From NCBI GenBank assembly GCA_964573245.1, contig CAZNJA010000006.1:1-42909 (forward strand): 42,909 nt of DNA, read 5' to 3'. The notes below the pieces were generated by a model that saw only the letters and a list, made by a program, of their open reading frames with translations, had not been told where the DNA came from and ran no database searches. Both the position numbers and the translations under genes were made by a program. This document shows positions 13,110 to 42,909 of the stretch, one piece after another. The stretch's first letter is position 1. Every line of letters begins with the position of its first letter. Source of the DNA: an uncultured bacterium (GTDB taxonomy: Bacteria; CAIJMQ01).

Positions 13110-13118
13110 TTATTTAAA

Positions 13119-17583: not shown

Positions 17584-17616
17584 TTTTAAAGTCTCCTTTT
17601 TCAGAGAACCTGTATT

Positions 17617-18534: not shown

Positions 18535-18575
18535 CTCCTAGTTTAATTTAAGTAGCTTCTCCCTATACCTCTCCC

Positions 18576-19841
18576 TCAATATTCTATTTGAATGACGATG
18601 AATTTATCTATGTCTTCACGCATTTTAGTTTGTGCTGTTTCCCCCGGTTCTGGCAAAACAAAATAACTACCCATGATTGTGATGGTCTCTTCTGAAACAA
18701 CCATATCAACAGGATTAAATATTCCCTTGAGTGACAAAATGGTATCTGAAATAGATTCCCCTTGTATATTTAGCTTGGTGATTGAAACTCCCTTTTCTTT
18801 TCCACCTACAATTAGCAATGATCCATCTGGTGTTGTGGCAACCAAGGAGGTTCCAAAACTCGTGGTAGGTTTAAGTTCTTTTTGCCACAGCAGTTGCATT
18901 TTATTGTCAAAACAAGCAATCACCGTATTGAAACTTGGGCCTTTATTGTAGGGAGCCTGAGCGATTGAAGGAAGTTGTGAATTTGTATAAGATACTACAA
19001 AGCCATTGCCACAATTTGTAATGTATTTTCTTCCAGCTGGTTGGATTCTGGCGTCAGGGATAAATATCTCGGCAATCTTATTCCCCGTGGAATCACACCG
19101 TATAAGCCACAGTCCTGAGGAACCTTGACCAAATTTATTATATTTACCACTTGTAATAGCAAGAAAACATCCCCCGTCATTGGTCATAGTTAATGCATAA
19201 GTAAATTCATCTTGTCCGTGGTCGAAGCTCTTCTGCCAAATAATTTTACCTTCGGAGTCTATCCGGGATAACCACGCATCACAGTGAGGTTTCCTGTCAA
19301 TCCAATTGGTTAGTGTTCCTCCAATGAGAAATTGATTATTGTTACTTGGGACAATTACATAAGGCATAATTTCCATACCTTTCTCGCCCAATCTATTCGA
19401 ATAAACTAAGGTTCCTGTAGCATCAACTTTGGCAATCCATCCCAATATTCCCCCAATAGCGAACAGGTTATCTCCAATGTTAATAGCGTCTTTAATTTCG
19501 TTTTGATTTGACTTGGTTGGAAATTCAAGTAATTTATCCTGGTCGCCTAATTGATTAATATCAAGAATCAACCATTCAGATTTCCAACTCTTGTTATTAT
19601 TGGGGTCTTCTTGCCAACCTGTACGACCAACGACACGATAACCTTTGTCTGGAAGTGGCAATAATGCCGAAGTTGTACAAAATCCACGAACATTATGCAC
19701 ACGTTGCCAAATTATATTATTTTTTGATGTTTGCTCCTCTCCCCCCACTTTTACCAATGGTGTCAGGCTTAAGATAATACTCAGTAAGACAGTATTGATT
19801 AAAATACTTCTGCTTAATTGCCATTTTCGCTTTTTATACAT
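18576..19841 (-). CDS. Secreted repeat (beta-propeller-like) protein
   Basis: Signal peptide; repeated W[LI]..[ID]D..G....W/Y blades such as DAWLSRIDSEGKIIWQKSFD. Confidence 0.7.
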   Translation of the reverse strand: MYKKRKWQLSRSILINTVLLSIILSLTPLVKVGGEEQTSKNNIIWQRVHNVRGFCTTSALLPLPDKGYRVVGRTGWQEDPNNNKSWKSEWLILDINQLGDQDKLLEFPTKSNQNEIKDAINIGDNLFAIGGILGWIAKVDATGTLVYSNRLGEKGMEIMPYVIVPSNNNQFLIGGTLTNWIDRKPHCDAWLSRIDSEGKIIWQKSFDHGQDEFTYALTMTNDGGCFLAITSGKYNKFGQGSSGLWLIRCDSTGNKIAEIFIPDARIQPAGRKYITNCGNGFVVSYTNSQLPSIAQAPYNKGPSFNTVIACFDNKMQLLWQKELKPTTSFGTSLVATTPDGSLLIVGGKEKGVSITKLNIQGESISDTILSLKGIFNPVDMVVSEETITIMGSYFVLPEPGETAQTKMREDIDKFIVIQIEY

Positions 19842-21297: not shown

Positions 21298-21759
21298 TCA
21301 CCTCCCTTTAATTGACTTGCTTTTGATAACTGCATCAAGTTTTTGCGGTTCATCAGTCCCGATTCGGTATATTTTCCCATTGTTCATTACCAACTCAACA
21401 GCATCTAATCCGGAGATATTAAAAACCCAAAATTTATTGGGTATCCAATGAATCCCCCATCCATACCACCACTGATTTCTGACAACGGTGCAGGATTTAA
21501 TATCAATAAGTTTGAAACTCTTTCTAATTAGCCCTAAACTAAATTTTATATTGATAAAATCGTTATCTACAAGAACAGTTAGACTTAGAAATGACCATAA
21601 TATTACAAACGAGGCAATAAGAGCAACAAAGAAGGGAATAAAAAATTGTGAAATCCCTGCAACTAATCCAACCAAAATTAAAACAAAAATTGTCCCCACG
21701 TATGTTATCAATATCCACCATCCAACTTGAGTATGTTTATACATTTCTTTCGGAATCAT
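21298..21759 (-). CDS. Small membrane protein (two TM segments plus a WYGWGI domain)
   Basis: Two hydrophobic helices followed by WWYGWGIH..FNISG..AVEL..IGTDEP. Confidence 0.75.
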   Translation of the reverse strand: MIPKEMYKHTQVGWWILITYVGTIFVLILVGLVAGISQFFIPFFVALIASFVILWSFLSLTVLVDNDFINIKFSLGLIRKSFKLIDIKSCTVVRNQWWYGWGIHWIPNKFWVFNISGLDAVELVMNNGKIYRIGTDEPQKLDAVIKSKSIKGR

Positions 21760-25347: not shown

Positions 25348-25959
25348 ATGAATGAAGAAATAGATAAACAGGGAAAATTATTCGAAGACGATACCATATT
25401 GGTAAAAGCTTTTCAGTCGGGAGATAAAAAAGCTTTTGATAGGTTAGTGCTGGGACATATGAATAGAATTTTTAACTTATGCTATCGTTTTTTGGGTAAC
25501 CGCGAGGAAGCGAACGACAGCGCACAGGAAACCTTTATAAAGGCATACCGTTCTTTGAACGAATTTGAATTGCGCTCTTCTTTTTCGACATGGATTTATA
25601 AGATAGCAATCAATACGTGCAAAAACCGTGTAAAATCTGCGGAATACAGGAATGCGGAAAAAACCGTAAGCATAGACGAGAATGTGCGTTCAAACGAGGG
25701 AGGAGAACATAATGTTGAAATGGGGAATGAGGTATTATCTCCTGCTAATGTTTTGGATAGAAAAGAAACCTCAACACGGATTCAGTCAGCAATAGATTCT
25801 TTGCCCGACGAGCAGAGAGAGGTTGTTGTGCTACGTGATATAGAAGGATTGTCTTACGAGGAAATAGCGGAAATAACAGGTAATGAACTTGGAACTGTAA
25901 AATCTAAACTTGCCAGGGCAAGAGAAAAACTTAGAGAAAAATTAAAGGGGTTGATTTAA
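25348..25959 (+). CDS. ECF RNA polymerase sigma factor (RpoE/SigW-like)
   Basis: GDKKAF..LV, D..QETFIKAY, FSTWIYKIA.N, LSYEEIAEI....GTVKSKL.RAR. Confidence 0.96.
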   Translation: MNEEIDKQGKLFEDDTILVKAFQSGDKKAFDRLVLGHMNRIFNLCYRFLGNREEANDSAQETFIKAYRSLNEFELRSSFSTWIYKIAINTCKNRVKSAEYRNAEKTVSIDENVRSNEGGEHNVEMGNEVLSPANVLDRKETSTRIQSAIDSLPDEQREVVVLRDIEGLSYEEIAEITGNELGTVKSKLARAREKLREKLKGLI

Positions 25960-26865
25960 ATGAACTGCGAAAGAGTTAAAGAGCTATTGAATGAATACGT
26001 CGACGGGACTATTGATGCGCAACTGAAGGAATTGGTGGAAGAGCATCTTTCCGGTTGCAGTAATTGCGCACAAGAGCTTAATTCTTTAAAAGCATATCTG
26101 GAAACAGTCGGTTCGCTTGAGAAAGTAGATGCTCCTGAGAATTTCCTGAAGAGTGTAAACGAAAAACTGGAAAACGAAAATTCAAAGCTGCAGGAACAAC
26201 CTAATTTTGAAACGGAGCCGGAAATTAAAGATATAAAACAAAAAACCTTTATGCCTTTCGGGATAAAATTACCCTTACAAGCTTTGGGTGTGTTGGCGAT
26301 TGTTCTTTTTGTCGTCTTTCTTGTGAAAGTAATACAGCCAAACAAGGAAATGCCGATAGTCGCTCCTTTACTTAAGGAAGAACTAGTTGAGGATGAGATT
26401 TTGACGGCAGATGAGAAGGAGCCTTTAGCGTTAGCAATGCAAAAAGAAAAATTAGCTGTGTCGGTTGTTTCGGAAATCAAACCAGTTGAACTTGTGCTTT
26501 TAATAAAGCCTGAAGTGAAAACAAATACGCTTGATTATGAAGGGAAAGGCCTTTCTGAGCCGGTTGATGCATTGCGCGTAGGAGAAGTAACTGCCCAAAG
26601 AGCTGTAAGTAGTATGGATGTAGATTCCGCTTATGCGGTGTCGCCGGTGGAAAACCTCATAAAATCTTTAGGGGGGAATGTTCTATCTGTAAAGTACGAC
26701 GAAGCTGAAACTCAAATTATATCTGCGGAAATTTCCAAGGAAAAATACAGTAATTTATTAAAGAATTTGGACAACTTGCACGAATTTCAAAAACCTTCTC
26801 CTTCGTTTATCGGAACAGAAGGAGACTTTATCAAGATTCGCGTAAAGCTTACCCCTTCCAATTAA
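25960..26865 (+). CDS. Zinc-finger (HxxxCxxC) anti-sigma factor with one TM segment
   Basis: MNCE...EEHLSGCSNC ZAS motif, a single TM helix and an extracytoplasmic C-terminus; abuts the sigma gene. Confidence 0.9.
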   Translation: MNCERVKELLNEYVDGTIDAQLKELVEEHLSGCSNCAQELNSLKAYLETVGSLEKVDAPENFLKSVNEKLENENSKLQEQPNFETEPEIKDIKQKTFMPFGIKLPLQALGVLAIVLFVVFLVKVIQPNKEMPIVAPLLKEELVEDEILTADEKEPLALAMQKEKLAVSVVSEIKPVELVLLIKPEVKTNTLDYEGKGLSEPVDALRVGEVTAQRAVSSMDVDSAYAVSPVENLIKSLGGNVLSVKYDEAETQIISAEISKEKYSNLLKNLDNLHEFQKPSPSFIGTEGDFIKIRVKLTPSN

Positions 26866-26872
26866 ATCTTAT

Positions 26873-26900
26873 GGAACTTTTTGTTTCATTTGTTGTCTAA
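26873..26900 (+). promoter_or_regulatory. ECF (sigmaE-type) promoter upstream of the serpin gene
   Basis: GGAACTT-N16-TCTAA, close to the sigmaE consensus; AGGAG RBS lies downstream. Confidence 0.75.
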
Positions 26901-26942
26901 AAGAGTGGAATATCCATTAAAAATAAAAAAGGAGTAGTTAGT

Positions 26943-28169
26943 ATGAAAACCCTGAAATGTTTTTTTATACTGTTAGTTATAGCAGCAATTGCGGCGGGCT
27001 GTTCGGTAAAAAAGGAAGAGCAAGTTGTAATAGTTAAACCGGCCGCAACGGAAGACAACAGTAATCAGTTTGCTCTCGAGCTTTATGCAAAATTGCGGGA
27101 GGAACAGGGGAATATCTTTTTTTCTCCATACAGCATTTCTACGGCACTCGCTATGACCTATGCCGGTGCGCGGGGCGAAACGGAAAAGCAGATGGCTGAA
27201 GTTCTGCATTTCGCTTTGCCTCAAGAACTTCTTCATCCTGCGCTTTCTCGGCTCCAACGCAGCTTGAACGAGAGTGGCGAGCAAGGAGCATATGAATTGA
27301 CTGTTTCTAATGCGCTTTGGGGGCAAAAGGGATACGGATTTTTAAAAGAGTTTTTGGAGACTATAAAAATTAACTATGATGGTGGATTTAATGAAGTTGA
27401 TTTTGCAGGAGATTCGGAGTCCGCCCGCAAAACTATTAACGCATGGGTGGAAAAGGAAACCAATAACAAAATTAAAGACATTATTGGTCCAGGGGTTCTC
27501 AAAAATTTAACTCGGCTCGTTTTAACAAATGCTATTTATTTTAAAGGTAATTGGGCAAAGCAATTTAATAAAGATAAGACCAAAGAACGCCCTTTCACTC
27601 TATTAAATGGCGAAAAGATTGATGTTCCCATGATGAACCAAAGGGCGGAATTAAACTATATGGAAACCGAAGATTTTCAGGGACTTGAACTGCCTTATGT
27701 AGATAACGATCTATCTATGATTATTCTGCTTCCAAAGAAAATTGACGGGCTTAGTGAGTTGGAGAAATCATTTACTGTGGATAATCTTTCAATTTGGCTG
27801 GAGGAATTTCGTAAACATGAAATCATTGTTTCTATCCCAAAGTTTAAGATGACCAACCAGTTTAGTTTAAATAATATTTTAAAATCAATGGGAATGAATG
27901 ATGCCTTTGGGATGAAAGCAGATTTTTCAGGGATGGACGGTACGACATACCTTTTCATTTCAGCGGTGATTCATCAGGCATTTGTTGATGTGAACGAAGA
28001 GGGAACCGAAGCTGCAGCAGCAACTGTGGTAGTAATGCAACTAAAATCAGCGCTGATGAAGACGCCGGTTTTCCAAGCAGATCATCCATTTATGTTTTTA
28101 ATTCGCGATAATCATTCGGGGAGTATTTTGTTTATAGGTCGAGTGATGAATCCTAAAAAAGGAGGGTAA
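26943..28169 (+). CDS. Serpin family protease inhibitor, lipoprotein
   Basis: Lipobox AAGC (Cys20); NIFFSPYSI, NAIYFKGNW, EEGTEAAAAT hinge, FQADHPFMFLI..GSILFIGRV. Confidence 0.95.
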   Translation: MKTLKCFFILLVIAAIAAGCSVKKEEQVVIVKPAATEDNSNQFALELYAKLREEQGNIFFSPYSISTALAMTYAGARGETEKQMAEVLHFALPQELLHPALSRLQRSLNESGEQGAYELTVSNALWGQKGYGFLKEFLETIKINYDGGFNEVDFAGDSESARKTINAWVEKETNNKIKDIIGPGVLKNLTRLVLTNAIYFKGNWAKQFNKDKTKERPFTLLNGEKIDVPMMNQRAELNYMETEDFQGLELPYVDNDLSMIILLPKKIDGLSELEKSFTVDNLSIWLEEFRKHEIIVSIPKFKMTNQFSLNNILKSMGMNDAFGMKADFSGMDGTTYLFISAVIHQAFVDVNEEGTEAAAATVVVMQLKSALMKTPVFQADHPFMFLIRDNHSGSILFIGRVMNPKKGG

Positions 28170-28173
28170 GAAG

Positions 28174-29589
28174 ATGAAAAAAATAATACTTGGTCTGGTA
28201 GTAAGCTTACTTATAGTCTATTCAGGCTTTGCCGCAGAGCCAATGAAAAGCACGGTTGAGGACCAGAAGGATATATACGTTACTATATATAACAGCAATT
28301 TGGGATTGGTGAAGGATATACGTGAAATAGACTTGCCAAGAGGAATATCGGAACTGCAGTTTATGGGTGTTGCCGAGAGAATCAATCCGACAACCGTTAA
28401 TATAAAATCGCTAATTGAGCCGAACAGTCTGTCTATTTTGGAACAAAATTATGAATATGACCTGCTTAATCCCGGTAAACTTTTGGATAAATATGTGGGA
28501 CAGCAAATTAAACTTATAGATAAGAATTATTATACAGGTGAAGAGAAAATATATGATGCAACTCTTTTAAGCAATAACCAGGGAGCGATTTATAAAATTG
28601 ATAATGAGATTCATATAAATCCGGGCGGAAGGGTTATTCTACCCAAGATACCGGAGAACCTGATTGCCAAACCGACTCTGGTATGGATGCTCAATAATAC
28701 CTTAAGAAAAAAACAGAGAGTGGAAGCTTCGTATTTAACGGACGGCATCAACTGGAAGGCAGATTATGTAGCTACTCTTAACGAAGACGATACCAAGAGC
28801 GACCTGACCGGTTGGGTTACCATAGATAATAAAAGCGGTGCCGCATATAAGGATGCTACGATACAACTAATAGCAGGAGATGTAAATAGAGTACAACAAC
28901 CTCAAGTAATGCGTGAGGGTTTGTATGCGATGAGGGCAGTTGACGAACTAAAGATGGGATTTGAAGAAAAAGCATTTTTTGAATATCACATATATACTTT
29001 GGAAAGAAAATCCACAATAAAGGAAAATCAAACAAAACAAATAAGTTTACTTGAAGCATCCGATATTCCGATAAAGAAAAATTTGATTTTCTATGGCGCC
29101 GAGTATTACTATCGCAATCGTTATGGTGAACCGATTTCAAATCAAAAAATCGGAGTTTATATTGATATCGCAAATAAAAAAGAAAATAATCTGGGAATGC
29201 CTTTACCGAAAGGAATAGTAAGAGTTTACAAGGCGGACCATGAAGGCAGATTACAGTTTGTGGGGGAAGACAATATTGACCATACGCCTAAAGACGAAAC
29301 AATTAAGATAAAGATGGGCGAGGCATTTGATGTTGTGGGCGAAAGAACACAGACGGATTGGAAGAAAATCGCCCGCAATGTTTATGAGGCGGAGTGGGAA
29401 ATATCCCTGCGCAATCACAAGGAAGAAGACGTTGAAGTGCAGGTTATCGAACCGATTCCGGGTGACTGGACTGTTTTAAAAAGCTCTCACGAATACGAGA
29501 AAATAGAAGCCCATACTCTAAAATACACAGTCAAAGTTCCTAAGGATAAAGAAGAAAAAATAACTTACAGAGTTAGAATGACTTGGTAG
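28174..29589 (+). CDS. DUF4139/DUF4140-type secreted protein
   Basis: Signal peptide; VTIYN.NLGLVKD.R, ASYLT.GI.WKADY, LGMPLPKG.VRVY, GED.IDHTPKDE. Confidence 0.85.
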   Translation: MKKIILGLVVSLLIVYSGFAAEPMKSTVEDQKDIYVTIYNSNLGLVKDIREIDLPRGISELQFMGVAERINPTTVNIKSLIEPNSLSILEQNYEYDLLNPGKLLDKYVGQQIKLIDKNYYTGEEKIYDATLLSNNQGAIYKIDNEIHINPGGRVILPKIPENLIAKPTLVWMLNNTLRKKQRVEASYLTDGINWKADYVATLNEDDTKSDLTGWVTIDNKSGAAYKDATIQLIAGDVNRVQQPQVMREGLYAMRAVDELKMGFEEKAFFEYHIYTLERKSTIKENQTKQISLLEASDIPIKKNLIFYGAEYYYRNRYGEPISNQKIGVYIDIANKKENNLGMPLPKGIVRVYKADHEGRLQFVGEDNIDHTPKDETIKIKMGEAFDVVGERTQTDWKKIARNVYEAEWEISLRNHKEEDVEVQVIEPIPGDWTVLKSSHEYEKIEAHTLKYTVKVPKDKEEKITYRVRMTW

Positions 29590-33020: not shown

Positions 33021-33060
33021 CTCAACCCGTCGCAATTTACGTGGCGGGTTGAGTTTTTTT
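33021..33060 (+). terminator. Intrinsic terminator after xylB
   Basis: ctcaacccgtcgc-loop-gtggcgggttgag followed by a T run. Confidence 0.75.
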
Positions 33061-34606
33061 ATTTTTGTTCTTCTATGCCCAAACGCTTGCGTAGAGATGA
33101 AGCAATCGCTTCGGGCATGAGCGGCAGAGAAGATTCCAAGCTGGATTTTTGTAGAGCATCGAAAGTTGGAAAAAGTTTTTGAAAGCGCGAGATTTTTGCC
33201 GCCATTCTTGTATAAACAGAATTAGCCAAAGATTGTAATCCTGCATAACGTTCGTCTTCTCCTGTGGCAAGCGCCCAATAACTTTGATACATAATTCCGA
33301 AAAGAATTCCGGTTATCTGTGGTATGGACGCTTCGTCCAATCTTTCTGTGAATGTAGAGCTGACATAATCCGAAAAAGAGAGGTTAGCTGTTTCTCCAGG
33401 ATACTTATCTCTTAAGTAAATAAAATATTTTTGTGCAATAGGCAGGTTGTTCATTGTATATGCCATAACTACTACTTCACTTAAAAAGTTACTATGAGCA
33501 CTTTTTACTCCTCTTGTCATTTTTTCTTCTAATTTCTGTATAGTATCTTCATAATAACTGTTCAATACGGGAACGACGTTAAAATCAGGAGCAAGAATCA
33601 AAACCTCTTCCCCCCCTATTTTTTTTATATCAACATTTCCCCACTTCCATAAATGGCCAAGAGAGAAATAAACCATTCTGTGATAGTCTATATCTACCAT
33701 GTCACTGGTGTTACGTTTGCCTTTTTCTATCCAGTAAAGAGAATGCGCCGCGGATGATTTCCAGTTCAAGGGGAAATACTTTGCCTCCAGTTCCAGCATA
33801 AATTCCGGGTCCATTTTAAATTCTTCCCGAAGGGTTTTGCCCCTTAAATAAGCTTCCAACTTTCTAAAGGAAGATTTTTCAGTAATTTCTTTTAAGTTTT
33901 CAGGAAGTTCGGAAAAATTGTCTTTGGAAATTTTTCTCCAGTCTTTGACGATGTCTATCTGTTTATCCTTGAAAGACGAGATTATCTTTTCTATATTTTT
34001 GTCTTCAAGCAATGTTTCATAAGAAGAATTTGCAACCATTTCTTTTAAAGTTATATCACCAAAAACATCCTTCATCATTTTCGCCCACATTTTCTTATAA
34101 TATGCATTGAATTCATCTAAAGTCTCGGAAATTTTGTGATATTGTATCCATGAAAGTTCTTTGTAAATTTCTGCTGAATTAGGAGTATATTTCAATCCCT
34201 TATCTCTCAATAATTTAATTCCTTGATATATCCAGTTCCATCTTTCTTCCCCGGCAGGGAATTGAGCTGAAATATTGTAGGCAAGATTCCATGCGTTGAA
34301 TTTCCAAATTGCAGGCAAATCAGGTTGAAGTAATCCTATCCAATCGGAAAGTTGAACAAGTTCGAAATATTTTCCATCGTCTTGCAACTTTTGCGCTCTC
34401 AACCATAAAAAGTTCACGAGTATTCCTCTAAACCCGCCTAAAAAAACTGTCGTAAAAACCAGTTCAGGGGGGAGTTTCTTTAAAGTGGTTTCTTCAGGCA
34501 AAATGGAACTTAATCGATCGTGGACCTGAAAAAGCGGATAAGAACAAGCATAAAAAAATAGCAAGGAAATTATAAATATTGTAATACTTTTATTCTTTCT
34601 ATTCAT
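33059..34606 (-). CDS. Membrane-anchored helical-repeat protein associated with the ABC module
   Basis: N-terminal TM segment; LGGFRG..VNFLWLRA....D.GKYFEL.QL..WI..LQP....W.FNAWNLAYNIS motif; start overlaps the permease stop. Confidence 0.75.
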   Translation of the reverse strand: MNRKNKSITIFIISLLFFYACSYPLFQVHDRLSSILPEETTLKKLPPELVFTTVFLGGFRGILVNFLWLRAQKLQDDGKYFELVQLSDWIGLLQPDLPAIWKFNAWNLAYNISAQFPAGEERWNWIYQGIKLLRDKGLKYTPNSAEIYKELSWIQYHKISETLDEFNAYYKKMWAKMMKDVFGDITLKEMVANSSYETLLEDKNIEKIISSFKDKQIDIVKDWRKISKDNFSELPENLKEITEKSSFRKLEAYLRGKTLREEFKMDPEFMLELEAKYFPLNWKSSAAHSLYWIEKGKRNTSDMVDIDYHRMVYFSLGHLWKWGNVDIKKIGGEEVLILAPDFNVVPVLNSYYEDTIQKLEEKMTRGVKSAHSNFLSEVVVMAYTMNNLPIAQKYFIYLRDKYPGETANLSFSDYVSSTFTERLDEASIPQITGILFGIMYQSYWALATGEDERYAGLQSLANSVYTRMAAKISRFQKLFPTFDALQKSSLESSLPLMPEAIASSLRKRLGIEEQK

Positions 34607-35924
34607 TTGGGATTCCCAATTCTCTATGAGAAAGATAAATCATTGCTACAAATAACAAGGGTAAAACTCCTAAAACAATTATTCTTACAAAAATGGAGGT
34701 TAAATAATGAGTTGGTATTAGAATAGCACTGCCAATGTAAGAATGCGGCAACGCTTCGTTTAAAGGGGGAAGTATAGAAGAGATAAAATTTAATATGGGA
34801 TAAGAGATGCGTTGCACAATTTCAATCTCTTCTTGTGCTTGCACTTCTCTTAGAATAGAGCTAAGAGTTATATCAATAAACTCATGCAAATACGATGTAA
34901 ATATTAAAATGGATGTTGTCAAAACTGCCGTCAAATGCGAAACAATGCATGATAAACAAATACCCACCGAATAAATAAATGTCACAAGCATTAAAATATT
35001 TACAGAGCCCTTGACAAGATTTACCCAGTAATTCCCTTCGGGAGAGAGTATTTTCAATTCTTGGGCAGAGAACAAAACGCTAATATTTGCGGGGTCTATG
35101 TTTAAATAGGTAATATTCAATTCTCCGTTCTCACTTACTGCTTCTATAGGAATTGGCAGGCGATAAACCTTATCCTTCGGCTGATTTGTCCCAATTTCAA
35201 AAGGAGCAGACAGAGAAGGATTATCCACGAGCCAATATCCTAAAACATTTTGTTCTTCTTCTCCAGCCGTCCTAAAACGGTATGACAAATATAAATTATC
35301 TGAACTTTCCGGCGAATTTTGATGGATAGAAGTTCGGCGAATACCTTCAAAATTCCAAGTCATTTCTCCTTTTGCCGGGACAGAATAAATTCCTCTTCTA
35401 TTGTCTCTGCTAATATTTAAAAAGGACATGAACCCCAAAGAATTACCTTGATATGATTTGTTGGTTTGAGTAGGAAATAACTCCTTTTCCGTTGTAAATA
35501 TACTTTTATGTTCTGGAAAGTTTTCTGCCAAATGATGAGAAACAAACAGGGAAGAAAAAACCATTGAGAATAGAAAACAAGCTATAAGAACGATATTTAT
35601 AAACAACATCCCAAGCCATTTGCCTAAAATTATTTCCCAACGTCGGATAGGCTTAACATCCAGGGTTAACAAAGTTTTCTTTTTCCACTCTCCGCTTATT
35701 GAAGAGCAGGAGAAAGAAATATTTGCCAAGGTAAAAATGATAGAACTTATTATAAACGAGTAGGTAACAAAAACTTTAAATTTCCCTTCTGCCGTTCCGT
35801 CTCCCAATAAGTTTGAACATAAAAAAGGTATCAACAAAAATATTACAACTAGGACAACGGAAGTAGGAGTAAATAAATAATCTCGGAAAGTATTGTTAGC
35901 TACGGCTGTAATTCTTTTGTTCAT
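34599..35924 (-). CDS. ABC transporter permease with a large extracytoplasmic domain
   Basis: VA.NTFR, TLDVKPIRRWEIILGKWLG and C-terminal ..REL. Start revised to ATG 35924. Confidence 0.88.
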   Translation of the reverse strand: MNKRITAVANNTFRDYLFTPTSVVLVVIFLLIPFLCSNLLGDGTAEGKFKVFVTYSFIISSIIFTLANISFSCSSISGEWKKKTLLTLDVKPIRRWEIILGKWLGMLFINIVLIACFLFSMVFSSLFVSHHLAENFPEHKSIFTTEKELFPTQTNKSYQGNSLGFMSFLNISRDNRRGIYSVPAKGEMTWNFEGIRRTSIHQNSPESSDNLYLSYRFRTAGEEEQNVLGYWLVDNPSLSAPFEIGTNQPKDKVYRLPIPIEAVSENGELNITYLNIDPANISVLFSAQELKILSPEGNYWVNLVKGSVNILMLVTFIYSVGICLSCIVSHLTAVLTTSILIFTSYLHEFIDITLSSILREVQAQEEIEIVQRISYPILNFISSILPPLNEALPHSYIGSAILIPTHYLTSIFVRIIVLGVLPLLFVAMIYLSHRELGIPNE

Positions 35925-35993
35925 GCGTATGCATCCCACCAATAGTAAATTTTCGTAAACAAATTATAAAATTATCGTTTATTGACTAAATCC

Positions 35994-36860
35994 TCATTCT
36001 TTATGTAATAAATTCTGGAGAACTTCTTTATCCACCTCATCTGGCTTCTTCGGGGAGATTTTTTCTTTTTTTTCTCTTGAAGCCGCGGCTATTCTTTGTT
36101 TCTCTCTTTCATTTCTCTCTGCATATATTTTATCCAGGAAAAACTTTTCCAGGCGATGGCTTTCATTTTGATAAGGCAGCAACAATTTATCAACTTTGTC
36201 TATTGCTACGAACTCTCCTTGATAGAGAACCCCAACACGGTCGCATATATTTTCAATATCTGATAAAAGATGCGTGGAGATGAGCATTGTCTTGCCTCTT
36301 GATTTAAGTTCCAAAAATAGGTCTTTCATTTCTTTTATCCCTATTGGATCCATCCCGCTTGTAGGTTCATCAAGAATCAATAAGTCAGGGTCGTTTACCA
36401 TAGCCTGCGCGAGCCCGATTCTTCTTGCCATACCCTTTGAATATTCTCCCACACTTCGTCTTTGATATGCCTTTATTCCCAATAAATTTATAAGGAAATC
36501 TATCCTTTCTTTTCTCATTTTGGACGGCAGATTAAATATTTTCCCGTAAAAATCCAACGTTTCGCGCCCATTTAGATAAGAATATAGATAATCTTCTTCA
36601 GGCAAATAGCCTATAAACTGTTTAGCAACGTTATCTCCCGGATTTTTTCCAAAAACTGATATTCTGCCGCGGGTAGGATAAAGAAGACCAAGAATCAATT
36701 TAAGCGTGGTGGATTTGCCGCTTCCGTTGGGTCCAAGAAGCCCCAAAATTTCACCTTTTTCTACCGAAAACGACAAGTTTTTAATAGCTATCGCTTTTGG
36801 TTTTCCCCAAAAATCTTTAAAAGTTTTTGTAACACCTTGCACTTTAATTAATTCTTCCAT
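35994..36860 (-). CDS. ABC transporter ATP-binding protein
   Basis: GPNGSGKST, YSKGM signature, LLILDEPTSG, STH. Confidence 0.97.
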   Translation of the reverse strand: MEELIKVQGVTKTFKDFWGKPKAIAIKNLSFSVEKGEILGLLGPNGSGKSTTLKLILGLLYPTRGRISVFGKNPGDNVAKQFIGYLPEEDYLYSYLNGRETLDFYGKIFNLPSKMRKERIDFLINLLGIKAYQRRSVGEYSKGMARRIGLAQAMVNDPDLLILDEPTSGMDPIGIKEMKDLFLELKSRGKTMLISTHLLSDIENICDRVGVLYQGEFVAIDKVDKLLLPYQNESHRLEKFFLDKIYAERNEREKQRIAAASREKKEKISPKKPDEVDKEVLQNLLHKE

Positions 36861-36889
36861 ATTAAAACTCCTTCAATTTAAACTTTGGG

Positions 36890-38755
36890 CTATTCAAACT
36901 TTACTATTCTGGCGCTATTTAAAATAACCGCAAGTGAGCCAACCTCATGATAAAGGGCAGCTATGATCGGATTGACTATGCCCATTCCCGCGAGAGTCAT
37001 TCCAACAAGAACGAATGTTCCTCCCAATGCTATATTTTGATAAATTATACGGTGTGCAAGACGCGATAGGGAAAGGAAAAATGGGACCCTTCTTAAATCA
37101 TTAGACATCAAAGCAATTGAAGCACTATTAATTGCCACATCACTGCCCATGGCGCCCATTGCTATGCCTATATCTCCTGCTGCAAGAGCCGGAGCATCGT
37201 TAATCCCGTCTCCTATCACAATCACGCGATATCCTTTCTTTTGCAGGCTTTCCACGATTTCAAGTTTTGTTTCCGGCAGGCACTCGGCGACAACTTCTTC
37301 GAATCCGGATTCTTTTGCTATTCTTTCTGCAACTTCTTTTTTATCGCCTGTAAGCATTACGAGTTTTTTTATCCCGATTCTTCTTAATTGTTCGGTTGTT
37401 TCCTTTGCTTCAACCCGTGTTTGATCTGCTACTTGAATCCAGCCGTAATATTTTCCGTCCATAGCTATATGAAGTATGCTTCCCGAATCTTTTTCTTGGT
37501 CGGATATTCCTATTTTATTCTCCCTCAAAAAGGACTCTCTGCCTACTACAATTGTTTTCCCGTCTACAGTGCCTTTTACTCCCTTGCCACCTGTTTCTTT
37601 GAATTCCCCGGGTTCTGTCAGTTTTATATTTGCTTTTGCAGCAAGTTCTCTTATGGCTCTTGCAACAGGATGTAGAGAGTGTTTTTCCAATGTTGCCGCA
37701 TAATAAATCAGTTTGTCGGGAGTGATTTCACGCGTAGGATGAATAGATGTGACTCTTAATTCTCCCGTTGTCAATGTCCCTGTTTTATCGAAGACTACAG
37801 CATTTATTTCTGCCGTGGTTTCAATCTTTTTAGCTTCTTTTATCATTACTCCTTTTCGCGCTGCTACGGAAAGGACGGCTATGATAGCTGTGGGAGTTGC
37901 CAAAAGAAGCGCGCAGGGAACACCTACAATAATGGAAGAAATAGACCTTGAAGCGTCTCTTGTAAAGAAAAGGATTAAAGCCGAAATCATGAGTACAACA
38001 GGAATATACCAGTAAATATGTTTTTCTATCAGTGACATAATAGGAATGCGTGTTTTTTCTGCTTCTAATATCAACTGTTTTACTTTTCCGAGTGTTGTGT
38101 CTTCTCCTATTTTTTCCACTTCCGCCAGTATTACACCCGTTATATTGTTTGTTCCTTCGAATACGCGGTCGCCTTTTTTCCTATCGACCGGGAAGGATTC
38201 TCCTGTAATAGATGCTTCGTTAACAGATGTGTCTCCTTGAACTATTATAGAATCTGCGGGAATATTTTCTCCGGGCTTGATTCGTATTATATCTTCAGTT
38301 TTAAGTTCTTTTACCAAGACATCATTTTCTTCTTTGTCTTTCACAAGATGAGCCACAGGAGGAGTGAGCTTTAAGAGCGATTCTATCGCCTCTTGCGCGC
38401 CGAGCGCCGTTCTGTGCTCCAAAAGTTCTCCCAAAACAAGTATGAAAGCGACCACGCCTGCGGTTAGATAGTCTCCCAAAGCTATACATGCAAGAACTGC
38501 TATGCTTGCCAACTCGGTTAGCCTAAGCCCCCCAGTAAAAAATCCCCGGAATGATTTTATTATCATTGGAAGGCCCAACAGCAATGCGCCTGCCAAAGCG
38601 CTGAGTTCACTTATAGAAGGAGACCCAGGGAAAAGGTGTTTTGCTATAAAAGCATTAAAAATCAAAATTCCGCCTGTAAGAGTAATTAAAAGTCCTCGCA
38701 CCAAGTGATGTTCTTCTTCATGTGTGTGGACCGGGTGGTAAAGTTCGGCTTGCAT
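36890..38755 (-). CDS. P1B-type heavy-metal-translocating ATPase
   Basis: TGES, DKTGTLT, HP, MLTGD and GDGINDAPAL motifs; TM motif GVPC; late TM HEVGS; His-rich N-terminus. Start revised to 38755 (TAATG overlap). Confidence 0.95.
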   Translation of the reverse strand: MQAELYHPVHTHEEEHHLVRGLLITLTGGILIFNAFIAKHLFPGSPSISELSALAGALLLGLPMIIKSFRGFFTGGLRLTELASIAVLACIALGDYLTAGVVAFILVLGELLEHRTALGAQEAIESLLKLTPPVAHLVKDKEENDVLVKELKTEDIIRIKPGENIPADSIIVQGDTSVNEASITGESFPVDRKKGDRVFEGTNNITGVILAEVEKIGEDTTLGKVKQLILEAEKTRIPIMSLIEKHIYWYIPVVLMISALILFFTRDASRSISSIIVGVPCALLLATPTAIIAVLSVAARKGVMIKEAKKIETTAEINAVVFDKTGTLTTGELRVTSIHPTREITPDKLIYYAATLEKHSLHPVARAIRELAAKANIKLTEPGEFKETGGKGVKGTVDGKTIVVGRESFLRENKIGISDQEKDSGSILHIAMDGKYYGWIQVADQTRVEAKETTEQLRRIGIKKLVMLTGDKKEVAERIAKESGFEEVVAECLPETKLEIVESLQKKGYRVIVIGDGINDAPALAAGDIGIAMGAMGSDVAINSASIALMSNDLRRVPFFLSLSRLAHRIIYQNIALGGTFVLVGMTLAGMGIVNPIIAALYHEVGSLAVILNSARIVKFE

Positions 38756-39816
38756 TATCGGGCTCCCTCCCATTTTGTTTCTTTGCCAAGCAATATTCTA
38801 AGTTCGTTTTCCTTTTCTTTGGCTGGCAATTGAAGAATAAATTTGTCATCCAATCCGACAAGAAGTTCTTCCATTTTCTCTTGGTAAAAATAAGAAAGGT
38901 AAGTTTTTAATTCTTCGCTGCCTTCAGGGAATTCTTGAGTCAGTTCTTGTATGTAAGTTGCGTCCGCAAGAGTTTCGCTTACAACCGTGTTTCGGTATGT
39001 TTGAGCTTCTGCCAATATTACCGAAGCGTCGCCTCTGGCGCTGTTTATTACGCGGTTTTCATAAGTTCTGGCTTCGTTTATGTAGGCGCTCCTTATTTGT
39101 TCAGCTCTTATTACTCCGTTAAAAGCTTCGACTACGCGAAGCGGAGGAGTGGGGCGTTCAAGGTGGACGGTGCTTATAGTTATTCCCGAATCTATCGAAT
39201 CCAATATTTCTTGAGATTTATAACGTGTTAAACGGCTAATTCGTTCCAACTGTGTGCGCAAAGATTCTTCGACCGAAGAATTTCCAATAGTTTCTATCAC
39301 CGCATTGGAAATGACGGATTTAATCAGCTTTTCCTCATCTTTTACTTTTGTGAGGTAGGAAATAGGTTCTGTTATATTGTAAGAAACTCGCAGACGCATA
39401 TGGATTAAATTATTATCTCCTGTAATACAATAACCGTGAAGATAAGGTATCAAGAATTCAGGTGGGGACATTTGAGGGTTGTCCAAGTCGGCGCTCCAAA
39501 ATTCTCTTATTTCCAACGATTTTACTCTCCTTACCGGGATGCGGACTATTTTGTCTATGGGTTCGGGAAAAGACCAGTGAAAGCCCGGTTGTAAAACGCG
39601 TCCATCACCCACTCCCGCAATCTTTCCCCAACGCAATATGACGGCTACCTCATCCTGTTTTACGGTAAACAATCCCGAAAAAGCAATGTAATAGAGTACG
39701 AGGCCACCTACTATTATCTTCAATGCGTTGAAACTCAAACGCAAAGCTTTCGCAAGATATTCAAAAGCAGGTTGCTGTTTTTCCCTGTTTTCCGTCGGTT
39801 TTTCTTGTTTAATCAT
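38755..39816 (-). CDS. SPFH protein, HflK-like
   Basis: TM anchor, VILRWGK, PGFHWSFPEPID, ITGDNN, PP..V.EAF..V..AEQ, INEARTYEN.V...ARGDA. Confidence 0.9.
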   Translation of the reverse strand: MIKQEKPTENREKQQPAFEYLAKALRLSFNALKIIVGGLVLYYIAFSGLFTVKQDEVAVILRWGKIAGVGDGRVLQPGFHWSFPEPIDKIVRIPVRRVKSLEIREFWSADLDNPQMSPPEFLIPYLHGYCITGDNNLIHMRLRVSYNITEPISYLTKVKDEEKLIKSVISNAVIETIGNSSVEESLRTQLERISRLTRYKSQEILDSIDSGITISTVHLERPTPPLRVVEAFNGVIRAEQIRSAYINEARTYENRVINSARGDASVILAEAQTYRNTVVSETLADATYIQELTQEFPEGSEELKTYLSYFYQEKMEELLVGLDDKFILQLPAKEKENELRILLGKETKWEGAR

Positions 39817-40721
39817 TTGTTATCTTCTTCGAAATATTTTCCCAACAACAAATCATACGGCGGTGTGCGCTGGTCTAAAATTACCGTCGCATTTTTTTCC
39901 AAAGTGGTTTTTAACGATTCCAACTTTCTTAAGAAAATCGCAAGCTCTTCGTTTTCCGAAAAAACTTTATAATATTGAGCGGCTTCTGCGTCTCCTTCTC
40001 CTTTAATCCTTTTTGCTTCGGCTTTGGCTTGAGCAAGAATCTTTTCTCTTTCTGCATCAGCCCGCGCCCTTATATCGCTTGCTATTCCTTCACCTTCGGC
40101 CAAATATGTTTCCGCGATTCTTTCTCTCTCTCTTTGCATTCTTTCGAATACGTCGCGCGTAACCTCTTGGGGGAATTGCATCCTTTTGAACACTACATCA
40201 AGCACCTCTATGCCATATATGTCTTCCGCTTCTTGGGAGCATAATTCCCGAATTTTTCCCTGAATTTCGTCCAATTTCAGTTCTGTTTCATTAGTATTTA
40301 TAAGATTGGAAAGATTGTAAGTTCCTATTATGCCCTGCTCGTAGTTCCTTACTATAGATACCAATTTCCTTTGAGCTTCATCCGTGTATCCTACGGACCT
40401 AAAGAACTTCAACGGGTCTTTGATTTTCCAGAAAGTAGCGGTGATAAGGATTATGTTTTTTCCGTCACGCGTAAAGCTTTCTTCCATTTTACTTTCGAGA
40501 ACTTGTATCTTCGCGTCGAATCTATCCACTTTTTGAATCGGTGTGGGTGCCTTCCAATATAACCCGGGTTCTTCTATTACTCGTGTGGGCTTGCCAAAGG
40601 TCGTTACTACAGCCATCTCTCCCACATGAATCTGAAAAGCAATTAAATACAATATAAGCAGAATAAATATTACCAATCCCAAAGAAAAAGTGTAAGGGTT
40701 CCAATTTCTTTCTTTTTTCAT
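39813..40721 (-). CDS. SPFH protein, HflC-like
   Basis: VVTTFGKP..VI.EPGLYWK.P, TRDGKN, VFERMQRERERIA..Y.AEG, GEGDAEAA..Y, FLRKLE. Confidence 0.92.
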   Translation of the reverse strand: MKKERNWNPYTFSLGLVIFILLILYLIAFQIHVGEMAVVTTFGKPTRVIEEPGLYWKAPTPIQKVDRFDAKIQVLESKMEESFTRDGKNIILITATFWKIKDPLKFFRSVGYTDEAQRKLVSIVRNYEQGIIGTYNLSNLINTNETELKLDEIQGKIRELCSQEAEDIYGIEVLDVVFKRMQFPQEVTRDVFERMQRERERIAETYLAEGEGIASDIRARADAEREKILAQAKAEAKRIKGEGDAEAAQYYKVFSENEELAIFLRKLESLKTTLEKNATVILDQRTPPYDLLLGKYFEEDNK

Positions 40722-40740
40722 TTTCTAACCTCCTTAGTAT

Positions 40741-40769
40741 GCCTCGATTCGCCGTTTACGGCGAGGCGG
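40741..40769. repeat. Palindrome overlapping the stop codon of the 628-aa SPFH gene
   Basis: Minus strand ccgcctcgccg-taaa-cggcgaatcgaggc; shares GCCTCGCCG with the purL insert. Confidence 0.5.
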
Positions 40770-42642
40770 AGCTTCCTTCCCCCGCCTCCAAGCCGAGAGG
40801 GAAAATATCCGGCAGAGAACCTTTTTGCATGTCCATGATGATTACGTCTCTGTCGCTGTCAGGCGAAATTACTATGTATTTTTTGGGAGAAATCAAACTG
40901 TTATCGAGAGTTTTTAGATAGTATCGGTATTTGAAAATAAGAGGATTCTCGTTATAAGCTTCAAGTTTTTTCTTGAATTCTTCTCCTCTTGCCTCGGATT
41001 CCAAAGTTCTTATGATTTTATAGGATTTGGCATCTGTTTCAATGGTAGAGGCGGTATAGTCCGCGAGGGTAAGTTCTCTATTAGAATATGCTTCCGCCTC
41101 GAGAATTTTAGCTTCCTTTTTCTCCATAGCCCCTACGACTTTTTGAAAATGGGGGGCCACCTCAAGAGGAGGATGAATACTCTCAAAACTTACCGATATT
41201 ATTTCTACGCCAAGTTCTTTTTCGTTTGCCGCTTCTTGCACTTTTTCTTTTAGTATATTTGTCAAAGGAATCCTGTTTATATGTAAAATGTCGAAAAAAT
41301 CGATGTTCATCACCATTCTTGTGAACTGGTTGTATATAATTCCCTCAAGAACTTTTTCCGGCGCCGAATGTTTATATGCGTAATCGAATAGATTGTCGGG
41401 GTTGATTTTATAATAAACCCATATTGCTCCCGATAGAAAATTTATGGGAACAGTCCCCGTTCTTTCGGCTTCAGAGATGCCTTCCCTGCTTGCGATTATC
41501 CAGAAAAACTCTTCTGCATAATGTTTTTCCGTCCACAGGACCCTTTCACCTTCTACTCCTTCTACTCCCACACGGATCTTTTTGATTCTATCGACATCAT
41601 AAATCCTTGCTTTTCCGATAGGGAACGGAAACTTAAAATGCAGTCCGGCTTTAAATGATTCCGGCTCGCCTTGTTCGCTTTTTACAGGATTACCCAAAAA
41701 TTCCATAAAAGCTCTTTCTTGGGGCCGGATTATTACGATAGAAGTAAGAATATATAATAATAATGCCCACAGCATCAATAAAGGCACTATTCTATTTTTT
41801 ACAAATTGGTAAAACCATGTTTGAGTAATGTGGAAGCCGAATTGGACATCTACTATTTCCGAAAAAGCAGGTATGACTTCTTCTGGGGTTGCCAGAAAAT
41901 AATAAATTCTGGAATCAAAGAGTGCTCGTTTTTTAGCTCCCGCTGTTTGGTAAAACGAAACCAAAATATTAAGAAGATATTCCAGCCCGACAATCATGAG
42001 CAAGAAACATAAGGCATAAAATATAAACCATTCTATTCTTGTTATCCCGAAACTCCTTAACGCGATAGATAAAGCAATAAGCAGAGTGAATAGCGCATTG
42101 ACTCCGAGATATGTCCCTATGGCGCTTAAGTCATTTAATTGTTTTTCGCGGGACATCCCGAGGATATAACGAGAAAAAACAAAAATAGCGAAGGTCAGCC
42201 CTATAAGAGGAAAACAAATCGCCAGATTTGCTTTATATACAAGTGGTTCCCCGCGAAAATAATATATTGCCCTAAAAGACGCGTAAATCAGAACAGCCGA
42301 AACTAAGAAACCCAGTATCGGCACTGCCCATTTTTCCGTTTGGCGCAGGCGGGTGCGGGATATGAGAATGGTGCTTTCATCGTCTTGGAAAATCCTCCCT
42401 TCTCTTTTAGTAAGCTCTTCAACTTCCTCTTTCTCAAGCAATTCCCTGTATCTTTGATGGAAAACAAGCAGGAGAATGGCAAATACCGGTATTCCCATTA
42501 AGATATGGAAATTTTCCAACAGAACAAGAGGAGAACCTATTCTGGTATATAAAAAGTAAAAAATGAGAGATAGAATAAATTGGAATAAAGTTGCGGCTAA
42601 AGCTGTCTGGAATCCTCTCTTGAATTTGTTTTTATCTTCCAT
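40756..42642 (-). CDS. Polytopic membrane protein fused to an HflK-like SPFH domain
   Basis: About 7 TM segments in the N-terminal 300 aa, then AGLHFKFPFPI, SIHPP.EVA..FQ.VVGA, EAEAY.N. Confidence 0.88.
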   Translation of the reverse strand: MEDKNKFKRGFQTALAATLFQFILSLIFYFLYTRIGSPLVLLENFHILMGIPVFAILLLVFHQRYRELLEKEEVEELTKREGRIFQDDESTILISRTRLRQTEKWAVPILGFLVSAVLIYASFRAIYYFRGEPLVYKANLAICFPLIGLTFAIFVFSRYILGMSREKQLNDLSAIGTYLGVNALFTLLIALSIALRSFGITRIEWFIFYALCFLLMIVGLEYLLNILVSFYQTAGAKKRALFDSRIYYFLATPEEVIPAFSEIVDVQFGFHITQTWFYQFVKNRIVPLLMLWALLLYILTSIVIIRPQERAFMEFLGNPVKSEQGEPESFKAGLHFKFPFPIGKARIYDVDRIKKIRVGVEGVEGERVLWTEKHYAEEFFWIIASREGISEAERTGTVPINFLSGAIWVYYKINPDNLFDYAYKHSAPEKVLEGIIYNQFTRMVMNIDFFDILHINRIPLTNILKEKVQEAANEKELGVEIISVSFESIHPPLEVAPHFQKVVGAMEKKEAKILEAEAYSNRELTLADYTASTIETDAKSYKIIRTLESEARGEEFKKKLEAYNENPLIFKYRYYLKTLDNSLISPKKYIVISPDSDRDVIIMDMQKGSLPDIFPLGLEAGEGSSASP

Positions 42643-42689
42643 AACGATTAATTTTTATAAAAAGTGATTTTTTATCAGAGATTTTCTAT

Positions 42690-42908
42690 TTATCTTCTTC
42701 CTGATACTTCTCTGTTTTCCAAGATACTCCACGTTAGAAAAAGCATGCCTGCGCAATACAAAAACGTATATTGTAACACATTCCAAAAATAAGCAATGGG
42801 AATAGGTTCCCTTTTTGCCCAGAACTCTTCTATCCAAAAAATCTGAAAGTTAGGTATAGTCGAATAAAGAAGTCTTACTCCTGGATTTTGGAGAAAGTTT
42901 CCTAAAAG
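42690..42908 (-). CDS. ABC transporter permease, C-terminal part (truncated by the window edge)
   Basis: Not in the ORF track. Manual translation gives ..LLYSTIPNFQIFWIEE..PIPIAYFWNVLQYTFLYCAGMLFLTWSILENREVSGRR*, a typical permease tail. Confidence 0.75.
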   Translation of the reverse strand, partial: LLGNFLQNPGVRLLYSTIPNFQIFWIEEFWAKREPIPIAYFWNVLQYTFLYCAGMLFLTWSILENREVSGRR

Positions 42909-42909
42909 C

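Follow-up and report, generated by a model that had tools for sequence, protein, structure and literature searches.

What do three SPFH proteins of the HflK/HflC type serve when their genes stand beside a transition-metal pump? The FtsH protease is the one client of bacterial SPFH cages that is well understood. The question is raised by contig C6 (CAZNJA010000006.1, assembly GCA_964573245.1) of an uncultured bacterium, analysed here over its entire length of 42,909 nucleotides (42.9 kb; hereafter the window). The genome that holds it comprises 1.46 Mb in 110 contigs and is 93% complete, and the closest protein relatives of the window bear names indicating Candidatus Ratteibacteria. At 33059-42909 on the minus strand, seven complete open reading frames (ORFs) and one cut ORF, all co-oriented and closely packed, encode in this order permease A, a long HflK-like protein, an HflC-like protein, a short HflK-like protein, a P1B ATPase, an ATP-binding cassette (ABC) ATPase, permease B and a protein of 515 amino acids (aa). 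The answer favoured here, which we consider somewhat probable, is that the SPFH and pump genes form a cassette for an HflK/HflC-type ring serving the metal pump, nested in an ABC-2 module within one operon-like block.

All three SPFH proteins match Band_7 in Pfam (E 3.6e-11, 5e-28 and 1.3e-23), and their relation to the canonical pair differs from one to the other. The 302-aa protein reaches 156.3 bits on the HflC model TIGR01932, above the equivalog cut-off of 134.4, the 353-aa protein reaches 159.0 bits on the HflK model TIGR01933, marginally below the cut-off of 159.4, and the 628-aa protein remains below that cut-off with 99.6 bits. Seven Band_7 matches, including the three of the cluster, were found in the whole genome, and a second hflK/hflC pair lies at the ends of contigs C17 and C28. 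This pair scores 219.6 bits for HflK (from the C-terminal part alone) and 270.7 bits for HflC, compared with 159.0 and 156.3 for the cluster genes, and the ftsH of the same genome is located on contig C24. The canonical hflK gene is split over contig ends, namely the start of C17 (minus strand; L004 2-448) and the start of C28 (plus strand; L003 1-633), so that the two contigs are probably adjacent in the genome; L-numbers denote loci fetched from other genomes or contigs for comparison. On C28, the hflK part is followed by hflC and then by an MscS-like channel gene.

An earlier note on this DNA had called for a phylogeny of the SPFH proteins against canonical HflK/HflC. A quick maximum-likelihood search in IQ-TREE was run on 49 rows with support from the SH-like approximate likelihood ratio test (SH-aLRT) only, comprising the three proteins of the window, eight other cluster sets, three plasmid cassettes, six canonical pairs including those of Escherichia coli and Ralstonia (hfq-hflX-hflK-hflC), and a stomatin-like outgroup. 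The long HflK-like proteins form one clade holding 11 of 12 rows (SH-aLRT 93), the short HflK-like (cassette-K) proteins another with 11 of 12 rows (SH-aLRT 93), and the HflC-like proteins of cassettes from the Planctomycetes-Verrucomicrobia-Chlamydiae (PVC) group a third with nine rows (SH-aLRT 97). These clades are separate from the canonical HflK/HflC of the same genome, of genome G002, and of E. coli, Ralstonia, Alkaliphilus and Chondrinema, while the canonical HflK/HflC of the genome group with those of Chondrinema. Judged from sequence comparison, the SPFH set of the window is not the canonical FtsH-associated pair, since it falls outside that clade and a better-scoring pair is encoded elsewhere. 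The E. coli HflK/HflC-FtsH complex (7vhp/7vhq) belongs to the same superfamily and shares the plan of an anchor helix, an SPFH domain and a long helix, and in both cases the genes for HflC-type and HflK-type subunits are neighbours. However, the window encodes three paralogues instead of two, and their conserved neighbour is the P1B pump, not FtsH or hflX.

The neighbourhood is retained over long distances. The long HflK-like protein is present in eight of the nine genomes of the window's phylum, and the eight-gene order is the same in all four loci fetched from it, one of them cut after the pump, with protein identities falling to 33-49% in the most distant genome. The genes upstream of the cluster vary among these relatives, being a UvrD-like helicase or a divergent CLP1_P gene, and the cluster boundary was therefore set there. 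The 515-aa family has at least 598 confirmed loci in species genomes, mostly of Verrucomicrobiota, Lentisphaerota, Kiritimatiellota and Planctomycetota, in agreement with the PVC neighbourhoods that the earlier note had mentioned. For the cross-phylum survey, 80 of these loci were kept, and 48 from Verrucomicrobiota, Planctomycetota, Lentisphaerota and relatives were informative in that their sequence upstream of the 515-aa homologue covers at least 9 kb. The full eight-gene order was found in 25 of the 48, and in seven more the SPFH-pump genes precede the ABC genes, and either permease A was not detected or the locus is cut at its edge. Permease B only was found in three loci, the ABC ATPase only in one and nothing recognisable in two; the other ten are considered below. 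The recurrence of the same order in other phyla puts the arrangement far beyond chance. Moreover, in L034, L038, L040 and L043 no cassette interrupts the run of permease A, the ATPase, permease B and the 515-aa gene. The block consists of two nested modules, the SPFH-pump cassette lying inside a split ABC operon.

The cassette also travels. A plasmid of Klebsiella aerogenes carries the long HflK-like, HflC-like, short HflK-like and P-type ATPase genes alone, with overlapping starts, and its pump is the top match to the window's pump among at least 5000 plasmid records. The same four-gene cassette, flanked by insertion sequence (IS) elements, was found on a plasmid of Burkholderia ubonensis. 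The SPFH proteins of both plasmids fall in the long and short HflK-like cassette clades, and no ftsH annotation was found within about 7 kb of either cassette. A further trio of long-HflK, HflC and HflK genes on the Aquibium oceanicum plasmid NZ_CP018172.1 (L091 5361-14804) adjoins genes for a peptidyl-prolyl isomerase, a 925-aa copper-type P-type ATPase, PCuAC and SCO. In the tree, both of its HflK-like genes branch together as sisters within canonical HflK, which suggests that this trio may be a parallel invention tied to copper and that the pairing of SPFH proteins with pumps may have arisen more than once.

A direct connection between scaffold and pump was found in Planctomycetota. The short HflK-like protein, used as query against 301 sampled genomes, had matches in 104 of them at E <= 1e-20. 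Two of the 301 encode pump-SPFH fusion ORFs of 987 and 995 aa, which share 65% identity over 991 columns and combine E1-E2_ATPase and Hydrolase with Band_7. An HflC-like gene comes after both fusions, and an HflK-like gene is next in the fully fetched locus. With the window's pump, the pump part shares 35% identity (E 4e-114), and it retains C-P-C, DKTGT and a His in the last helix; the SPFH part matches both the long (E 4e-25) and the short (E 2e-30) HflK-like protein of the window. In the fusion, the pump stands where a six-helix domain stands in the long HflK-like protein. This fusion is the strongest evidence here that scaffold and pump may act as one assembly. Directly upstream of both fusions lies a gene of some 850 aa (L102 8932-11496, L103 2133-4670) that weakly matches the two-component-regulator propeller family Reg_prop.

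The six-helix domain makes the long HflK-like protein unusual. From the N-terminus, the 628-aa protein consists of this domain, which resembles cation diffusion facilitators (CDFs) of the ZnT type, a conserved linker (D-Y/V-QFGF), an anchor helix, the SPFH domain and a long coiled-coil helix. The AlphaFold model of residues 2-628 (37-row alignment) has a mean predicted local distance difference test (pLDDT) score of 77, with about 90 for the N-terminal helices. In a structure search in which unrelated helical (four-helix) bundles reach about Z 10, residues 1-239 of the model matched ZnT3 (9jj1_A) with Z 15.5 and a root-mean-square deviation of 3.9 over 199 residues, followed by SLC30A10 (9kvx, Z 14.3), ZnT8 (6xpd, 10.3), ZnT4 (10.2), ZnT1 (10.1) and ZnT7 (9.1). 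On the ZnT matches, the N-domain has the six-helix CDF membrane fold, whereas the rest of the model matches HflK (7vhp_E, Z 15.2). The likeness to CDFs (ZnT3, SLC30A10, ZnT8 and FieF/YiiP) thus lies in the membrane fold, with a weak profile match only, and the cytoplasmic C-terminal domain of CDFs is replaced by the anchor helix and SPFH domain. One distant family member scores 23.1 bits on PF01545, below the gathering score of 26.6. The invariant polar residues of the N-domain are E70, E221 and Y231. We read it, from the model, as a CDF-like domain in which the usual metal site has been lost. Its profile recovers 1127 representative clusters at E <= 0.001, and Band_7 is present in 19 of the 20 long clusters scanned.

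The 627-aa pump is a P1B-type ATPase. It scores 531 bits on the heavy-metal P-type ATPase model TIGR01525 of NCBIfam (cut-off 346), matches E1-E2_ATPase and Hydrolase in Pfam, and exceeds the cut-offs of both subgroup models (TIGR01512, 454 versus 313.5; TIGR01511, 405 versus 397). The motifs DKTGT, TGES and GDGxNDxP are retained, together with V-P-C at residues 285-287 in the fourth core helix. Full-length alignments were obtained with CopA of Legionella pneumophila (3rfu, E 4.9e-88) and with the PIB-4 pump sCoaT (7qbz, E 3.2e-85). The Pro-Cys of the core helix is aligned in all three pumps; the first position is Val in the window's pump, Cys in CopA and Ser in sCoaT. In addition, Y-H-E-V-G-S of the last helix aligns with H-E-G-S-T of sCoaT. 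The combination of V-P-C and H-E differs both from CopA, with its C-P-C, and from sCoaT, with its S-P-C. Phylum-level relatives share this form, with V-P-C (A-P-C in L009) in the core helix and Y-H-E-x-G-S in the last helix, and the cassette pumps of other phyla have mostly C-P-C and H-N/V/T-x-G-S. No classical N-terminal ferredoxin-like metal-binding domain was matched by Pfam in the pump. Its N-terminal tail is His/Glu-rich and shorter than the tails in Verrucomicrobiota, which are rich in His, Asp and Cys.

The metal genes of the rest of the genome bear on the substrate. The only other P-type ATPase found is of the copper type (TIGR01511, 595 bits). Neither a CDF (PF01545; control found in 14 of 14 genomes) nor ZnuA (PF01297; control found in 11 of 14 genomes) was found in the 93% complete genome, which also holds a partial ZIP-family gene and two Fur-family genes. 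The substrate of the pump is most likely a zinc-type divalent transition metal (Zn, perhaps Co, Ni or Cu(II)); further hints at a metal are the His/Asp/Cys-rich tails of the cassette pumps and the ZnT-like N-domain of the long HflK-like protein. P1B pumps by default transport metal from the cytoplasm to the periplasm, and the window's pump may follow this direction or, less probably, perform an import as claimed for HmtA. The V-P-C/H-E pump form and the lack of a detected CDF are lineage-specific additions.

The outer module has the composition of an ABC-2 type transporter, an ABC_tran ATPase being combined with ABC2_membrane permeases. In relatives, permease A is complete at about 314-336 aa and lies directly upstream of the long HflK-like gene (L006, L007 and L009); these homologues carry ABC2_membrane_4, and permeases A and B are paralogous. 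Permease B has a large non-membrane insert, and its probable start is an ATG six codons into the frame (441 aa). The best NCBIfam model of the ATPase is GldA. The likeness to the GldA/GldF and DrrA exporters consists in the ATPase scoring best on the GldA and DrrA models and in the ABC2_membrane families of the permeases. Contrarily, the equivalog cut-offs of GldA and GldF are missed by a wide margin (198.9 versus 402.6 bits and 20.8 versus 288.5), and, unlike these exporters, the window has two dissimilar permeases and a helical partner of 515 aa that belongs to no named family.

The 515-aa partner had no Pfam or NCBIfam match; 458 relatives were found at E <= 0.001 among 8000 scored candidates. 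Its model (pLDDT 89.5, predicted TM score 0.84) is built of helical repeats and one beta-hairpin, with one helix and then a second, highly conserved hydrophobic helix at the N-terminus. Foldseek returned generic TPR/armadillo proteins at best (Tom71, E 1.3e-3, TM 0.16) and no fold in the PDB at E <= 0.001, and the matches in the ESM Atlas were unnamed PVC clusters only. The invariant residues of the family, many of them Trp, are concentrated at positions 46-171. Because its gene always comes after that of permease B, with an 8-nt overlap, the protein is suggested to be a subunit of the ABC module. Five metagenome-assembled genome records with the PVC-type cluster (L046, L027, L048, L055 and L081) are titled Klebsiella or Bifidobacterium and are apparently mislabelled bins.

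The features of the cluster are collected in Table 1. The gene content that the earlier note had listed was borne out by the ORF list, Pfam and NCBIfam, and so were the start/stop overlaps it had reported. Those at 39813-39816 and 34599-34606 measure 4 and 8 nt, and the one at 38755 spans 19 nt when the first ATG is taken as start and 1 nt when, as in the relative L006, translation begins at the second Met. The remaining gaps within the cluster are 29-51 nt long. No strong minus-strand terminator was found inside the cluster, and promoter-like sites were not enriched in it (18 observed versus 23.2 expected); the promoter region of the block falls past the contig end. The hairpin at 33021..33053 directly follows the stop codon of the 515-aa gene, separates the cluster from a convergent FGGY kinase gene and likely marks the end of the transcription unit. 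As noted before, ftsH, which is on contig C24, is absent from the window, and the Pfam scan of the other 34 ORFs gave no HflX family.

Table 1. Positions of the SPFH-pump cassette, the ABC-2 module and the terminal hairpin in the window, with the basis of each assignment
Feature	Position	Strand	Basis or remark
ABC-2 permease A, 3' end (72 codons)	42690..42909	-	5'-open frame, remainder past contig end
Long HflK-like protein, 628 aa	40756..42642	-	Band_7 at residues 304-518, AlphaFold model, tree
CDF/ZnT-like six-helix domain, residues 1-240 of the long HflK-like protein	41923..42642	-	fold matches
HflC-like SPFH protein, 302 aa	39813..40721	-	TIGR01932, tree
Short HflK-like SPFH protein, 353 aa	38755..39816	-	TIGR01933, tree
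P1B-type transition-metal ATPase, 627 aa	36890..38773	-	TIGR01525, alignments, motifs
ABC ATPase, ABC-2 (DrrA/GldA-like) type, 288 aa	35994..36860	-	ABC_tran E 1.2e-31
ABC-2 permease B, 447 aa from first TTG	34599..35942	-	ABC2_membrane_2 E 5.5e-9
Membrane-anchored helical-repeat protein, 515 aa, unnamed widespread family	33059..34606	-	homologues, model
Strong hairpin, 13-bp stem with 8 G-C, T-run on + strand	33021..33053		terminator-like

By gene order, the closest described case is the hmtA locus of Pseudomonas aeruginosa, for which the following is taken from the available parts of the cited papers. There, PA2439 (HflK family), PA2438 (HflC) and PA2437 (HflC family) lie beside hmtA (PA2435) (PMC4542158 Table 2), an arrangement further recorded in PMC8531726, PMC11761036 and PMC9431628. 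The PA2439-PA2434 locus is induced by zinc depletion at the RNA and protein level (PMC4542158, PMC8531726, PMC11761036, PMC9431628); a weak Zur box is also reported in these papers, and Zur binds the PA2439 promoter in an electrophoretic mobility shift assay (PMC8531726). HmtA is described in a review as an importer of Cu and Zn (PMC8456098). The proteins of PA2437-PA2439 were named PaFlo5-7 in a 2026 paper that reports their patchy distribution (PMC13086221) and does not mention hmtA. In both loci, a P1B ATPase gene thus stands next to a run of three genes of the HflK/HflC family. They differ in that the P. aeruginosa locus includes PA2436 and PA2434, with no ABC-2 module or 515-aa partner reported there, and that the window's pump has V-P-C, not C-P-C. 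In a search seeded with the Klebsiella plasmid pump, only Enterobacteriaceae-type proteins were among the best 120 of 3761 matches, and HmtA was not among these.

A conceptual parallel exists in Mycobacterium tuberculosis, where the small membrane scaffold PacL1, encoded with the P1B ATPase CtpC, stabilises this pump in high-molecular-weight membrane assemblies termed metal efflux platforms, as stated in the available part of the paper (PMC9374683). The parallel goes no further than the concept, as PacL1 is a DUF1490 protein, not an SPFH protein, and its foci are reported there to be independent of flotillin. In the literature searched, which did not extend to the supplements of the cited papers, no description of the cassette as a unit or of the eight-gene PVC form was found, and the papers found on HflK/HflC, Zur and P-type ATPases yielded, in the parts consulted, no mechanism for the pairing of SPFH proteins with pumps.

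These results suggest how the two modules could work. The long HflK-like, HflC-like and short HflK-like proteins would assemble as a heteromeric SPFH ring of the HflK/HflC type whose dedicated client would be the metal pump, not FtsH. Each ring protein would be anchored by one helix, with the SPFH domains on the outer face as in HflK/C, and the pump would most likely be held at or inside the membrane fence of the ring, because the CDF-like domain of the long subunit sits where the pump is fused elsewhere. Permease A, the ABC ATPase, permease B and the 515-aa protein would constitute an ABC-2 transporter in which two dissimilar permeases are accompanied by a membrane-anchored partner. Since the SPFH-pump module lies between permease A and the ATPase, as it does in many PVC bacteria besides this lineage, both modules are probably co-transcribed and may cooperate. 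The data show which genes are present, their paralogy, conservation and separability, the fusion and the fold; we infer the assembly of the ring, the metal, its direction and a coupling to the ABC module. A complex prediction for the pump (627 aa) and residues 1-300 of the long HflK-like protein from 25-row alignments gave a score of 0.00 and counts neither way.

Several observations weigh against this reading. For the N-domain of the long HflK-like protein, neither the CDF family PF01545 nor any other Pfam family was matched at E <= 0.01, and the profile comparison with E. coli FieF gave 1% probability with a 25-row profile and, collinear over FieF 11-195, only 30% with a 130-row profile. The FieF site D45, D49, H153 and D157 aligns, with low confidence, to H46, G50, Y178 and N182, and in 37 family members the corresponding columns hold mainly F, G, Y/F and N/G, so that the site is not conserved. 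The V/A-P-C in place of C-P-C in pumps of the Ratteibacteria type implies that the metal chemistry may have shifted, and the separate origin of the Aquibium trio beside a copper-type pump implies that the metal may differ between versions. The binding of the pump by the SPFH proteins is also something that we infer. The likeness to PA2439-PA2435 is one of gene order as given in papers, of which the available parts report no zinc repression of hmtA mRNA in one study (PMC8531726) and only subtle phenotypes of a triple SPFH deletion in P. aeruginosa under the conditions tested (PMC13086221). Finally, the plasmid cassettes lack the ABC genes, and in ten of the 48 informative loci the ABC genes have no adjoining cassette, permease A lying directly before the ATPase in three of these. 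Taken as one inseparable unit, the candidate machine of the earlier note is not supported in the face of this separability. As for its proposal that the SPFH set cages or organises the pump and/or the ABC complex, the pump half gained from the conserved and sometimes fused linkage; the caging of the ABC complex lost ground, since with separable modules the conserved nesting is what speaks for it. The finding that the note itself had named as fatal, SPFH genes in the canonical FtsH clade without conserved linkage to the pump and ABC genes, was not obtained: the genes have clades of their own, and they stay linked to the P1B ATPase gene in different phyla as well as on plasmids.

That separability lends itself to another explanation, in which the cassette and the ABC genes are two independent systems, a mobile cassette having once landed in an ABC operon and then been inherited. 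The occurrence of the cassette alone on plasmids between IS or transposon (Tn) elements fits this, as do the contiguous ABC genes of L034, L038, L040 and L043 and the ten loci just mentioned. If the insertion were neutral, however, it should have been lost or relocated more often than is seen, considering that the genes overlap or nearly touch and that the nested order is kept within the phylum down to 33-49% protein identity as well as in Verrucomicrobiota, Planctomycetota and Lentisphaerota (25 full and 7 partial of 48); we regard independence as doubtful, yet worth serious attention. Alternatively, the SPFH trio could supply alternative HflK/HflC subunits that still serve FtsH, which is a zinc-dependent protease; they might do so under metal stress, for instance, and the pump would share only their regulation. 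All three proteins are indeed inside the HflK/HflC superfamily, the 302-aa protein passing the HflC cut-off and the 353-aa protein missing that of HflK by 0.4 bits; the fold match to HflK 7vhp_E (Z 15.2) and the presence of an ftsH in the genome point the same way, and PA2437-PA2439 are taken as FtsH modulators by P. aeruginosa authors in the available parts of their papers (PMC9431628, PMC11761036). This alternative becomes quite improbable in view of the better-scoring canonical pair in the same genome, the separate cassette clades, a cassette that moves on plasmids with its pump and with no ftsH annotated within about 7 kb, the fusion of the pump to the first SPFH protein in two genomes, and the transporter-like domain of one subunit.

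A third possibility concerns the direction of transport rather than the client. The block might be a metal-uptake device like HmtA, in which the pump would import zinc or copper in starvation and the ring with its CDF-like domain would capture or channel periplasmic metal. It would suit a 93% complete genome in which ZnuA was not found, and it draws on the description of HmtA as a Cu/Zn importer and on the zinc-depletion-induced, Zur-bound locus, as given in the available parts of PMC8456098, PMC4542158 and PMC8531726. The tie to HmtA is one of gene order and the import claim comes from the literature, whereas the pump of the window keeps ordinary P1B catalytic motifs and a partial ZIP-family uptake gene exists in the genome, which leaves uptake unlikely. 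The reading of an HflK/HflC-type ring that serves the pump is thus retained here.

Elsewhere in the window, three groups of genes deserve mention. An extracytoplasmic function (ECF) sigma factor, a zf-HC2 anti-sigma protein, a serpin and a DUF4139 protein are encoded in a row at 25348-29589 on the plus strand; the serpin is a full-length bacterial one (408 aa, Serpin E 3.3e-129) in a neighbourhood unusual for serpins. At 12237-13673, a gene for a pyruvoyl-dependent arginine decarboxylase adjoins an arginase-family (agmatinase-like) gene, forming a compact polyamine pathway. Five minus-strand ORFs of 122, 305, 421, 209 and 153 aa at 17215-19841, 14456-15085 and 21298-21759 gave no Pfam family at E <= 1e-5.

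A conserved and sometimes fused transition-metal pump is a concrete candidate for a second client of SPFH cages, and with the pump as client an explanation would also be at hand for the so far unexplained HflK/C-like genes that Pseudomonas carries in its zinc-starvation locus hmtA. A fuller picture can be drawn speculatively, and as a whole it is rather unlikely: a private SPFH ring around the pump, with a retired zinc-transporter domain as docking site, would act jointly with the ABC-2 exporter in PVC-type bacteria and hand a divalent metal to an exported or periplasmic acceptor. If this were true, a metal pump rather than FtsH would be the ancestral or a parallel client of HflK/C-type cages. 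For Ratteibacteria, with their genomes of 1.5 Mb, the cassette may be the main route for divalent metals, because its pump is the only non-copper P-type pump found and no CDF was detected.

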